This document shows, in pieces, positions 25,515 to 40,706 of a stretch of DNA of 60,626 bases. The translations under genes and the position numbers were made by a program. The stretch comes from an uncultured delta proteobacterium. Lineage in GTDB: Bacteria; Desulfobacterota; Syntrophobacteria; Syntrophobacterales; Syntrophobacteraceae. Every line of letters starts with the position of its first letter. Position 1 is the first letter of the stretch. The DNA is taken from NCBI GenBank assembly GCA_963808625.1, contig CAWEHK010000053.1:1-60626 (forward strand), read 5' to 3'. The notes under the pieces are model-generated. The model saw only the letters and a program-made list of their open reading frames with translations. It had not been told where the DNA came from and searched no databases.

Positions 25515-25615
25515 CCATACCCGCGGCGGTCGCGGTCGCAGCGGTCTGCTTCGAGAGGTTGCGGCTTGTAGGAGCGTGAGATATCAAGATTCTTCTTCCG
25601 GTTCGTTTTTTTTCA

Positions 25616-25656
25616 TTGACACAAAAAAACAGCTTTGCTTAGTTTAATTCACTAAG
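25616..25656 (+). promoter_or_regulatory. Candidate sigma70 promoter with overlapping palindromic operator
   Basis: TTGACA at 25616-25621 and TAGTTT at 25640-25645; inverted repeat CTTAGT-N7-ACTAAG at 25638-25656. Confidence 0.4.
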
Positions 25657-26215
25657 TGGAATCAAATGCATCCTCAAAATTCCGCTGGGTTTGTCAGCGT
25701 CGTTGTCTCGTATCGGTGAGTTAATGGGGACCAATTCGTTTTTCTTCTTATGAGTTAAATCTGGAAGCATATCGTGGTCTTAGCGTAGGGCCCTTTGGCT
25801 CAAATCTTCCAGGCTTTCGAATATCCGCAACGGGCGCATGTTGAGTCTCTGCCGAGACACCGTTCGCCGTCTCCACGTGATTCAACGCTTGCGTCTTCCT
25901 GAAAATGGAAGGACTTCAATGGGCCCTGCTCCGAGCGTGCGGCAGACCAGGATCATCATGAAATCATCAGCGGCCCCGTCCATCCCTTGCTTTTTCGCGG
26001 CTTGGAGTCCGCTCCAACCCGAGCTACCCCCTCAGTCGGGTGATTGTTCTCATGTTCTTGACCGCAAACGATGGCAACAGTCGGTAAGTTAATGGCAGGG
26101 GCGACGCATGAAAATGCGCGGGCGGCGGTGGCGGCGATCGAGCCGATTACGCCGGAGGAGATGACAAACCAAGCTGCACCCTGCAGCGCCACACGGTGAA
26201 CCCAAGGAGAACACC

Positions 26216-27508
26216 ATGGCCACAAAAGCGATTACCAAGAGAAACTGGACCATCATGGTCTATCTCGCCGGCGACAACAATCTGGACAGCGCCGGGGTTG
26301 TCGATCTGAAAGAGATGAAGACGGTCGGCACCACTGACCAGATCGCCGTCCTCGCCCAGTTCGACCGGGCCGGGGCGAAAGCGGCGACCGTCCGCTACTG
26401 TCTGCAAGAAGGGGACAACGGTCGCCAAGGACGCGGTGCAGACGCTCGGGGAAACCAACATGGGGGACCCGAAGGTGCTGGAGGATTTTGTCACCTGGGG
26501 GGTCACGAACTATCCGGCCGACCATTACCTGCTGGTGCTCTGGAACCATGGCGCCGGCTGGGATGACGCCAACCTCTACCAGGGCGACGTCTTCAGCGGC
26601 GCCGCGCCGCCGGTCTCCCGCAAGAGCCAGCCGGTCGTCACCCGGGGGGCAGTCGCCGGAGCCAAGACCCATCGCCTTTGCCCAGGCCCGGGCCGGCATC
26701 AGCCCGCACCCGCCGGGCCCTCTTCAGCACCACGGTGGAAGCCGCCGTCAAGCAGCGGGGGATCGCCTTCGACGACCAGGCCCAGGACTTCCTCGACAAC
26801 ATCGAGCTGAAAAAGGTGATGACCAGGATCAAGAAGAAGCTCACGCGGAAGATCGACATCCTCGGGATGGACGCCTGCCTCATGAGCATGGTGGAGGTGG
26901 CCTACCAGATGCGCGACGTGGCCGAGTACAGCGTCGGCTCCGAAGAGACCGAGCCGGGCGAGGGCTGGCCCTACGACCGCATCCTCAAGGCCCTGGCCGC
27001 CAAGCCGGCCATGACCCCGGAGGAGCTCTCGAAAACCATCGTCACCCAGTATCTCGCCTCCTACAAGGCCGGCGACAACGTCACCCAGTCAGCCGTGAAG
27101 CTCGCGGGGCTCAAGCCCCTGGCCGCTGCCGTGGACGGCCTGGCCAAGGCCCTCAAGAACATCCTGGCCGACACCGCCTCCCGCACCGCCCTGATCAACG
27201 CCCGGGCCCAGGTCCAGGAGTACAGCCGCCCCTACGACGACTACTGCGACCTCCTCGACCTCTGCGACCTCCTGGAGACGAAGCTCACCGACCCGGCAGT
27301 ACGCACCGCCTGCGCCGCAGTCAAGCAGGCTGCCGCCGCTGCCATCGTCGCCAGCGGGTACAAGGGGCCGGCCGTCGACAACTCCCGGGGCATCTCCATC
27401 TACTTCCCCAAACGCAAGCTCTCGCCCCTCTACAAGACGCTCGACTTCACCAAGCAGAGCTCCTGGGACGAGTTCCTGGCGGCGTATCTGGCGGGGCTGG
27501 GACGCTGA
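26216..27508 (+). CDS. Clostripain-family (C11, clan CD) cysteine peptidase lacking a signal peptide (frameshifted)
   Basis: [28 protein letters not shown] (His), GMDACLM (Cys), [12 protein letters not shown] and GISIYFP motifs; AGGAG RBS. Confidence 0.9.
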
Positions 27509-38700: not shown

Positions 38701-39300
38701 CCATCGACCCTCCCGAGCAGGAATTCACCTGGCAGGGGGGGCGGTCGCTCCTGGAATTCGACGTGGCGGTGCCGGACGACGCCGAGGAAGGAACGATCCC
38801 CCTCAAATTCGACGTGTCCATCGAGGGGATCATCGTCGCCCGCCTGCGGCTCGATCTGGAGATAGCCGCCGCACCGAAGAAAAAGGGGCGGGCCACGGCC
38901 ACCGGCGAGCCGGCCACGACCGGCTTCGCTTCCTACTCCTCGAAGGATCGGCTGCGGGTCCTCGACCGGGTGGACGCCATCCAGATCAGCGCCGGCATCG
39001 ACGTATTCCAGGACTGCCTCGACCTGCATCCGGGGGAGGAGTGGAAACCGCGGCTCGACAACGAGATCAGGCAGACGCGATCTCTTCCTCCTCTTCTGGT
39101 CGAAAAACGCCAGCGAGTCCACGTGGGTGGGATGGGAACTGGATACGGCGCTCAAGGAGAAAGGGGAGCAGGCCCTGCAGCTCCACCCCCTCGACCCGGG
39201 CGTCAAGCCTCCGCCGGGGCTCGAAGAGCTGAACATCGGGAGCGTCACCATGTGGGTGCGCAAGGGATTTGAAGCGGTGCTGGCGGAACGGGAGAGTTGA
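32795..39300 (+). CDS. Giant multidomain protein: two alpha/beta-hydrolase (lipase) domains + CHAT caspase-like peptidase + TPR-like repeats + C-terminal TIR (about 2100+ aa rebuilt across frameshifts)
   Basis: Lipase motifs LFLHGTASS/VSHSRGG and LPGIMGS/VAHSMGG/LGTPNGGS; CHAT ARYPWEMM, IVHLAGHG, FVNCCHLG, AAGWAVQD, WGAYQCYGDP; TPR ALGKAYGELRHFEEAVEHY; TIR FASYSSKDR..LFLLFWSKNASESTWVGWEL. TIR continuity with the rest is inferred. Confidence 0.75.
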
Positions 39301-39439
39301 GCCGGCGGCCCCAGTCGACGCCATACTGTTGGCGCTCTTTCGCAAGCGGGGTTGATGGCTGTGGCGGCTACGGAGTTGTGGGCATTGCCGATTGACCGGC
39401 GAGTTAATGATGGACCTCGAGCGTACAGGAGGAGAGACG

Positions 39440-40706
39440 ATGACGGGATGGAAGGTTTTGGTAGGGAGGTTTTTGGTGCTGATCTGGTGCATGTTCTTTG
39501 GGTTCTACGGAGGAATCGACATCTCGGACGCGGCTGCGGACGACGGAGCTTTTCCCACCGGTGCGGACACCGGAGGACCGGACTTGGTGATCAATTCCGT
39601 TACGGGACCGGCAAGCGCTTACCTGGGGCAGTCGGTGCAGGTGAAATGGACGGTGAAGAATCGGGGTGACATCGATGCCTCGACATTCAAGGTCGGCCTA
39701 TATCTTTCCACGGACAACAAGATTGAGCCGGCCAAGGACAGGCTGTTGAAGAAAGTGGACCCTGGCGGGCCTTGACGCCGGGGTGAGCAGGACGATAACG
39801 ACCACGGTTACCATTCCTCTCAATATCGAAGCGGGCGGGTACACTCTGGGAGCCATGGCGGATGTGGATAAAGCCATTGCCGAGACCAATGAGAGCAACA
39901 ACACCAAGGCTTCCAATAACATGATCAACATTGCGAGGTACGCCGCCACCCAGTATACGGTAACCGACAAAAAAACCAGACTGGTCTGGCAGAAAAGCGA
40001 TGACGACAGCAAGCGAAGCTGGAGCGACGCCGTCAGCTACTGCGATCAACTGGTGCTGGGGGGCAAGAGTGACTGGCGACTGCCCCGCATTGACGAGCTC
40101 CGGACTCTGATCGACTACACGCGATTCCTTCCGGCGATTGATCCATCCTTCCAGGGGCATACGAATGCTGACTATTGGACGATTACCGAACTGACCACGC
40201 CCATCCCCATGGGTTATAAATGGATCGTGGATTTTCAGTCCGGCAGTGACGGTTGGCTGGCAGAAACCTCTGCAAACTACGTTCGCTGTGTCCGCAACGG
40301 ACCCTTCTGGCCGCTTGATCCTTCCGAAAACCTGGTGATGCTGGACGAAGACCGGGTCAAGGACAATCGCACCAAGCTGACCTGGCAGAGGGCCGACGAC
40401 GGGACCGGCAGGACCTGGCAGGAATCGGTTCAGTACTGCAATGACCTGGAACTCGGAGGGGCGAAAGACTGGCGTCTGCCTGCCATCACCGAACTGGAAA
40501 GCATCATTGATTACACCGAATACCAACCGGCGTTCGATCCGCTGGTGTTCGAAGGCAGTGCTTCGACCTACTGGTCAGCCACCAGCTCCGGTGTTGATGG
40601 CGCCCACAATGCCTGGGCAGTCGATTATTTTTATGGTCAGATTCCCGGTTTTTACCCGAAAACGGGTAAGTTCAAAGTCCGTTGCGTCCGTGGAGCAATA
40701 TGGTGA
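39440..40706 (+). CDS. Secreted CARDB + 2x DUF1566 (Lcl C-terminal-like) protein (one frameshift)
   Basis: AGGAGG RBS, signal peptide, PDLVI..IAETNESNN (CARDB), and two DWRLP..EL / VRCVR repeats. Confidence 0.85.

Follow-up and report, generated by a model that had tools for sequence, protein, structure and literature searches.

The window analysed here, a 60,626-nucleotide stretch (contig C53) from an uncultured delta proteobacterium, carries a run of protease, SIR2, NTPase, membrane and lipase genes, and the question it raises is whether these genes work as one pathway. A preliminary description had proposed a single seven-gene conflict pathway, with a mosaic of independent modules as its fallback. 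Its domain calls (C11, SIR2, nSTAND1, pYEATS, two lipases, CHAT and TIR) were confirmed by Pfam, and the genes are co-oriented, as it stated, all on the + strand. The full set, however, was found in 0/80 loci of the giant twin-lipase gene and in 0/80 loci of the membrane gene examined, and the single pathway was not borne out in that form. The mosaic came closer, although its pieces are not all independent, as the clostripain, giant and membrane genes are contiguous in two other loci (L099 and L113). With a little better than even confidence, we read the locus as a mosaic around a recurring core of a clan CD protease and the giant protein, likely an arginine-specific protease relay that would free membrane-damaging lipases. 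The same reading takes the SIR2 and nSTAND1-transmembrane (TM)-pYEATS genes as a separate two-gene, split NLR-like cassette inserted between the core genes in this lineage. The genes concerned are as follows.

26216..27508, + strand: clostripain-family (C11) peptidase, His (NHG) and Cys (DAC) motifs intact, T-R-G linker at ~26640 (Pfam, motifs)
27993..28942, + strand: stand-alone SIR2 protein, a predicted NADase with GAGxS, TNYD and KMHG intact (Pfam SIR2_2, motifs)
28944..30868, + strand: nSTAND1 NTPase with a coiled coil, one predicted transmembrane helix and pYEATS (homologue tiling, Pfam, hydropathy, Walker A/B)
31057..32738, + strand: membrane protein with ~8 hydrophobic segments and a C-terminal TIR-like flavodoxin-fold domain with an invariant Glu
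32795..39300, + strand: giant gene, probably one open reading frame (ORF) of ~2,170 aa, frame-broken in the window

The giant gene reads, in order, an N-terminal extension (R-G at 33125), lipase 1 (DUF7379), lipase 2 (LCAT-like), an R-G linker at 35358, a Macro/LAP-N fold, CHAT, TPR and TPR-S, an unnamed domain and TIR_2. Its pieces matched Pfam DUF7379, LCAT, CHAT (3e-28), TPR-S (4e-10) and TIR_2 (0.002, on a broken piece), and on intact giant-protein homologues TIR_2 reached E values of 6e-12 and 8e-12. The lipase, CHAT and TIR parts, which the preliminary description took as several genes, are most likely one gene in the window, because the intact fusions L041 (2,169 aa) and L023 (2,211 aa), C-terminal TIR included, tile window positions 32816-39276 across ~11 frame changes. 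Given these fusions, separate lipase, CHAT and TIR genes are unlikely; the join at ~38170 is drawn from homologues only. The frame breaks across the locus look like assembly errors, since they occur genome-wide in this assembly (completeness 84.6%), with EF-G split over four ORFs, and related contigs from sequencing runs show single-base indels at several of the break points.

At least 447 relatives of the giant gene were confirmed among 602 candidate stretches (one-per-species genomes, several phyla); the giant-gene loci examined are the best 80 of these, and the protein alignment holds 65 full-length homologues. The Ser, Asp and His of lipase 1 are kept in 65/65 aligned proteins, the Ser of lipase 2 in 64/65, its Asp and His in 65/65, and the CHAT His/Cys dyad in 65/65. 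G004, G018, G007 and G002 hold intact relatives of 1,536-2,211 aa. Because intact copies occur in cultured Thauera, Denitromonas, Rhodoferax and Azotobacter, the broken copy of the window is not needed for study. Nine plasmids carry the Macro-CHAT region, one of them with its copy between two TIR genes. No signal peptide was visible on the giant protein. Its nearest relative is that of L041, at 75% identity.

The gene directly upstream of the giant gene points to a protease slot. Among the 62 loci with at least 1.5 kb of upstream room, 26 have a clan CD peptidase as the co-directional gene immediately before the giant gene (C14 metacaspase in 22, C11 in four, both in none), and further cases are G004 (C11) and the paralogous locus on contig C28 of this genome (C14). 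The window's own clan CD partner is a Peptidase_C11 (Pfam E 9e-38, 131 bits against a cut-off of 26) that scores below the NCBIfam clostripain equivalog cut-off, with no signal peptide visible in its sequence. Its identity to four clostripains placed immediately before a giant gene is 77-91%, and these C11 partners fall on three separate giant-protein branches in a quick tree of lipase 2. The closest of them, in L059, is 91% identical to the window clostripain, whereas the giant protein of L059 is only 45% identical to that of the window; conversely, L041, which holds the nearest giant gene, lacks a clostripain in the locus and carries two genes with a TIR upstream, one of them with NB-ARC. 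Of the neighbour co-occurrence that the preliminary description had named as a check, the pairing of core protease and giant gene recurs, while SIR2 and nSTAND1 are unlinked from the core in 4/4 other close copies.

Slot and giant protein share an arginine signature. Four invariant residues have the most variable surroundings, and three of these are arginines in the N-terminal extension of the giant protein. In an alignment-free count, R-G occurs within the 22 residues before lipase 1 in 65/65 proteins, against 45 for the next dipeptide (40 of the proteins being non-redundant at 60%, with a chance of 13% per sequence). Another Arg, between lipase 2 and the Macro-fold, is invariant (65/65). On the protease side, [ST]-R-[GA] follows the catalytic Cys in 21/23 partner C14s examined (one without it, one not parsed), and [ST]-R-G lies in the linker of 6/6 close C11s, as in the window, and of 0/2 distant ones. 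These patterns suggest that the R-G and [ST]-R-[GA] sites are candidate protease cut sites.

Several further observations concern the giant gene and the slot. Window positions 38445-38909 encode the unnamed domain ahead of the TIR, a stretch of 155 aa that is 78% identical to the G004 copy versus ~44% for the rest of the protein, which suggests that giant-protein tails have been swapped; an ESM Atlas search with this domain returned unnamed clusters only. The genome of the window has seven CHAT matches, and at C28 67384-74735 (L028:7385-14736) a metacaspase lies directly upstream of a second giant gene. At L041:2953-9751, immediately before the closest relative of the window's giant gene, lie the two TIR-bearing genes, a 368-aa gene and another copy of the giant gene. 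L045:1601-8332 has a giant-gene fragment with a MACPF-like gene of fungal type on one side and a gene for a Tle1-like phospholipase on the other. In L212:7550-14005 (G404), genes for a papain-like C1 peptidase, a clostripain, an amidohydrolase, TM-pYEATS and PLD are co-directional, possibly a further protease-phospholipase module.

The middle domain and CHAT were modelled with residues 895-1495 of the homologue in L029 (predicted local distance difference test score, pLDDT, 87). The best fold matches of the CHAT part were separase and Csx29 (Z 20.9 and 20.1). The domain before it, according to the model, has a Macro/LAP-N fold: it matched LAP-N with Z 15.8 (root-mean-square deviation, rmsd, 3.0; 166 residues aligned) and a second LAP-N with 15.6, and among macro domains PARP9 with Z 14.4 (rmsd 3.4, 176 aligned) and macroH2A with 14.0. 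The motifs HG[DN]L and G[TS]GxGG are conserved among the 65 homologues, with D or N in 62/65 and the Gly loop in 55-63/65 per position; the window has Ser at the D/N position (HGSL), and the pocket was compared by motif only. We take both motifs to resemble macro ligand-binding motifs, the adenine-binding G-D and the diphosphate-binding Gly loop. This domain and the transmembrane helix of the STAND protein are two features that the preliminary description had overlooked. The source of the TPR-S and pYEATS domains is reportedly Burroughs and Aravind 2020 (J Bacteriol), with TPR-S said to be a predicted sensor of NAD-derived signals.

The membrane gene is a recurrent optional partner of the core. 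Pfam returned no family and no TIR match for the protein, Foldseek gave no clear match for its C-terminal domain, and an ESM Atlas search with that domain yielded unnamed clusters only. In a model of the domain (pLDDT 88), the top three structural matches were TIRs (RPS4/RRS1 with Z 10.6, then 9.8 and 9.4), with non-TIR folds reaching 9.3, and a Glu, a candidate for the catalytic position, is kept in 36/36 proteins. Up to three TIR or TIR-like domains had been counted at the locus: the giant protein supplies a clear one, the membrane protein is TIR-like by model only, and a third, at 27542-27973, is a doubtful remnant. Scoring of 8,000 candidates gave 1,871 membrane-protein homologues. The membrane gene lies near the giant gene in 9/80 giant-gene loci and the giant gene in 6/80 membrane-gene metagenome loci; other membrane-gene neighbours are patatin, SLATT, TPR-S and TIR-PASTA genes, plus many ordinary genes. 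The protein is a candidate signal source.

In the mechanism that we propose, a ligand, probably an ADP-ribose-type TIR or SIR2 product, would bind the Macro-fold or TPR-S part and switch CHAT on, and the membrane TIR-like protein might supply this signal to the core. CHAT and the partner protease would then cut [ST]-R|[GA] sites, in either order, the partner being activated. The released lipase pair would be the effector, damaging the membrane so that the infected cell is killed or arrested. The SIR2 and nSTAND1-TM-pYEATS cassette may sense outside the inner membrane and deplete NAD+. A sharper version, which we hold to be rather unlikely, makes the giant protein a nucleotide-gated zymogen: an ADP-ribose-type messenger would bind the Macro-fold and set off two successive arginine-protease steps, the partner being an exchangeable clostripain or metacaspase, with release of the twin lipases at the end, the messenger coming from an interchangeable fused TIR, the membrane TIR-like protein or a STAND-activated SIR2.

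A number of observations weigh against the proposed relay. A clan CD gene directly upstream is lacking in 36/62 loci, where the R-G site is kept anyway, so that its only protease may be the CHAT of the same protein, or its role may be structural. Bacterial metacaspases in general may have an Arg linker behind the catalytic Cys. A close clostripain and the giant gene are ~25 kb apart in G130, and in G404, which has a clostripain at 52% identity, no giant gene was found; since, in addition, protease and giant-gene identities disagree in L059 and L041, the modules are often reshuffled. The best fold match and only sequence-level match (E 0.007) of the middle domain is an aminopeptidase N-terminal domain, and the window carries HGSL instead of HG[DN]L. 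The membrane gene is without the giant gene in 74/80 of its loci; only 23 of the 80 are at least 8 kb long, and 3/6 positives look like near-copies.

The same 36 loci favour the view that the giant protein is self-contained and self-processing and that all of its neighbours, clostripain included, are functionally unlinked defence-island company, as do a stand-alone copy beside a type I restriction-modification system on an Azotobacter plasmid and the lack of a clostripain in L041. That view does not account for two clan CD families that fill one slot in one orientation on several branches and never occur there together, nor for the Arg motif that both share, and we consider it doubtful.

The cassette bears on whether all six genes belong to one pathway. 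SIR2_2 was matched in the window with a Pfam E value of 1e-10, and a close homologue matches the SIR2 domains of ThsA and KomC; the catalytic Asn (TNYD) and His (KMHG) are present in the window, and N and H are invariant in 5/5 homologues. With these motifs intact, the reading of this SIR2 as a dead pseudo-enzyme was rejected. At 28940-28946 the SIR2 stop is followed by the nSTAND1 start 1 nt later, making them separate genes. nSTAND1 scored E 3e-12 and 47 bits on the window fragment and 161 bits on the intact homologue P0234 (cut-off 27), Walker A and B are present, one hydrophobic helix precedes pYEATS by hydropathy, and pYEATS itself scored E 8e-7. P0234 (636 aa) tiles the nSTAND1-pYEATS region, and by P0234-P0236 the fusion is real. 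Elsewhere, the cassette is unlinked from the core in all four of the other close copies (L025, L214, L231 and L232), which have variable fusions and no core genes within 16-20 kb; in G430 the core lies ~450 kb from the cassette, and the cassette adjoins the core in 1/80 giant-gene loci. Protein searches found the cassette in 1/400 genomes of a phylum search and 2/80 family genomes; a DNA-level phylum search gave 3/400, with short matches, by a method too insensitive for the purpose. In L214:854-2551 an adenylate/guanylate cyclase domain is fused to SIR2, upstream of nSTAND1-WD40. Between clostripain and cassette lies one further feature.

27542..27973, + strand: decayed remnant, a TIR-like first strand followed by a P-loop fragment; left out of the count of TIR genes

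The remnant matched nSTAND6 with E 1e-4, below the cut-off. A third TIR at 27542 was rejected, with no Pfam TIR match and only a 17-residue match (E 0.015).

GC content alternates between the genes, as the preliminary description had noted; measured gene by gene it spans 0.53-0.67 (C11 0.66, SIR2 0.56, nSTAND1 0.53, membrane gene 0.645, giant gene 0.67, Lcl 0.56), with a genome mean of 0.557 and 1.6% of 3,177 1.5-kb windows at 0.64 or above. This bears on the proposal that all six genes form one pathway, in which pYEATS-STAND would activate SIR2 and an ADP-ribose product would gate Macro-CHAT and, through it, clostripain and lipases. The cassette does sit between two core genes on the same strand, and two findings speak against its strict independence: in contigs of the runs X2 and X4 (one study, ~90% identical) the end of clostripain runs straight into the start of SIR2, 27510 joining 27974 without the 463-nt remnant, so that the two genes are also direct neighbours, clostripain first, in a related organism; and L038, from another phylum, has a divergent TIR-SIR2 and nSTAND1 beside C14 and the giant gene. 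pYEATS genes also adjoin the giant gene in L070 and lie near clostripain in L212, and STAND genes occur in 5/58 large loci versus 4/215 control windows (p 0.02). This enrichment is weak, however, and the NB-ARC and AAA16 hidden Markov models (HMMs) behind that count come from the same loci; nSTAND1 alone is found in 3/58 versus 3/215 (p 0.11), SIR2 in 1/80 giant-gene loci, the four close cassettes are unlinked, and cassette GC is 0.53-0.56 against 0.65-0.67 for the core. We therefore regard a single six-gene pathway as quite improbable.

Conserved neighbourhoods and motifs support a putative role in conflict or immunity and a putative protease cascade ending in lipases. Around the giant gene, TIR, TPR-S, STAND and patatin genes predominate. 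Of the giant-gene loci of at least 15 kb, 28/58 hold TIR-like or SIR2 genes, compared to 16/215 own-genome windows (the window's own excluded), a contrast that is overstated because the HMMs derive from these loci; this partial circularity, with one frameshifted genome as control, also counts against our reading. Envelope remodelling, programmed lysis or inter-bacterial conflict in place of phage defence is very improbable: M15-like peptidase HMM matches in 20/80 loci (one representative confirmed by Pfam), muramidase and peptidoglycan-binding neighbours and a core without a PADLOC match would fit it, but signal peptides are not visible on clostripain or giant protein, the neighbours are mostly TIR, TPR-S, STAND and patatin genes, and wall hydrolases equally fit a lytic end step of defence.

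Two flanking features complete the locus.

25417..25571, + strand: pit remnant, its 5' 97 nt fused to its 3' end; flank, outside the system (blastn against relatives)
39426..40706, + strand: CARDB and two Lcl_C domains, probably secreted; neighbour, not member (Pfam, host-like GC)

The locus had been described as replacing the rest of a pit gene. Replacement by insertion is ruled out by blastn, as both pit ends are present and only an internal 841 nt are absent relative to the loci of relatives (7/9 loci with both ends aligned). These relatives align to window 24783-25513 and then to 25514-25568, the latter 841 nt further along their own pit, so that position 25513 abuts the last ~55 nt of pit directly; the deletion is either real or an assembly collapse. 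The locus itself starts 645 nt past the pit stop; contig C8 of the same genome holds an intact paralogue of pit. Related DNA was listed at a low share in four sequencing runs of one study and in no RNA run, and none of the contigs spans the locus or the pit deletion. At the other end, CARDB-Lcl had been placed within the locus, a membership without support, given its host-like GC and one weak match (27%) in 80 giant-gene loci. An Rfam scan of 24000-42000 gave 0 matches, and promoter and terminator scans were near the shuffle level (2 versus 3.0 and 19 versus 12.6). For the intergenic stretch 25784-25956, G001 and G006 gave matches at 70-71% identity and C8 a short one; Rfam gave none. Elsewhere in the window, GC is low at 1677-5537, where trypsin-like and Sel1 genes lie with an ORF resembling a transposase, and 55685-60622 (- strand) is a second low-GC cluster (0.42-0.51) with a 737-aa TIR/SEFIR protein (PADLOC bSEFIR E 3e-61), a 449-aa protein without a Pfam match, a 170-aa unknown and DUF4760.

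Most of the value of the locus lies in its two-gene core, which combines an Arg-protease slot with exchangeable occupants, conserved candidate cut sites and a Macro-fold domain. Together with the shared Arg motif, the slot converts an odd string of domains into named cut sites, catalytic residues and a candidate ligand. If the relay reading is right, proteolytic lipase release and clostripain-family enzymes would join the logic of bacterial cell death, and Macro sensing would be linked to CHAT activation. The zymogen version, if true, would describe a death pathway in bacteria that leads from TIR through caspase to lipase, a hub into which different sensors plug, and the first immune role for clostripain-family enzymes.

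The preliminary description did not recognise a named system, and PADLOC and NCBIfam likewise gave no system-level match: PADLOC v2 and NCBIfam returned nothing for the giant protein without its TIR, C11, the membrane protein or P0234. The literature searched, including the available text of 10.64898/2026.10.19.760177 and PMC12803255, held no description of this architecture, which bioRxiv supplements or Burroughs and Aravind 2020 could list, and neither DUF7379 nor PF24096 was found in any paper listed. According to the available text of the respective reports, Avs5 is a SIR2 NADase-STAND NTPase with a C-terminal sensor (PMC11897194), and nSTAND1 counter-invader systems combine a variable sensor with NAD-processing or peptidase effectors, the examples using FGS sensors and EAD adaptors (PMC8195603, Kaur et al. 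2021). The cassette resembles Avs5 in having SIR2 followed by a STAND NTPase with a C-terminal sensor; it differs in being two genes (also in L025, L231, L232 and L214), in its nSTAND1 clade, in the membrane helix before pYEATS and in lacking a PADLOC Avs match. With the systems of Kaur et al., as far as their available text describes them, it shares the nSTAND1 NTPase, the variable sensor and NAD-processing or peptidase effectors (PMC8195603), and no pYEATS or Peptidase_C11 entries were found in the 12 of its 13 supplements searched.

For the core, the available reports describe two cascades of note. In Thoeris type II a Macro domain senses the TIR product, and in type IV the TIR product activates an Arg-specific caspase-like protease (10.64898/2025.12.03.692087; 10.1101/2024.10.24.620036). 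Both ingredients, Macro-fold and Arg-protease candidates, are present here, but a stand-alone ThsB-type TIR is absent; the giant protein carries its TIR as a fused domain, as does the multi-pass membrane protein its TIR-like one. Weak PADLOC ThsB matches cover only the giant-protein TIR, and the best NCBIfam Thoeris score was 18.5 against a cut-off of 220 bits. In type III-B CRISPR, ligand-gated SAVED-CHAT processes a second caspase-like protease, PCaspase (10.1101/2023.06.23.546230; 10.1101/2024.10.24.620036). Here too, as known from sequence, a CHAT with a His-Cys dyad (65/65) is encoded near a second caspase-like protease (26/62 loci), with a fold match to SAVED-CHAT 8tl0 (Z 15.2). In contrast, Pfam scans of the locus and intact homologues gave no SAVED or Cas family, the Macro-fold and TPR-S standing instead; a PADLOC SAVED_TIR match covers only the TIR part, two lipases are fused in cis, and the partner can be a clostripain. 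The TPR-CHAT of Craspase (Csx29) and separase are the best fold matches of the CHAT part and share the His-Cys dyad, but here Cas7-11 is absent, the TPRs follow CHAT, and lipases and a Macro-fold are fused. The core is a member of none of the systems tested, but it would work like the known ligand-gated protease cascades.

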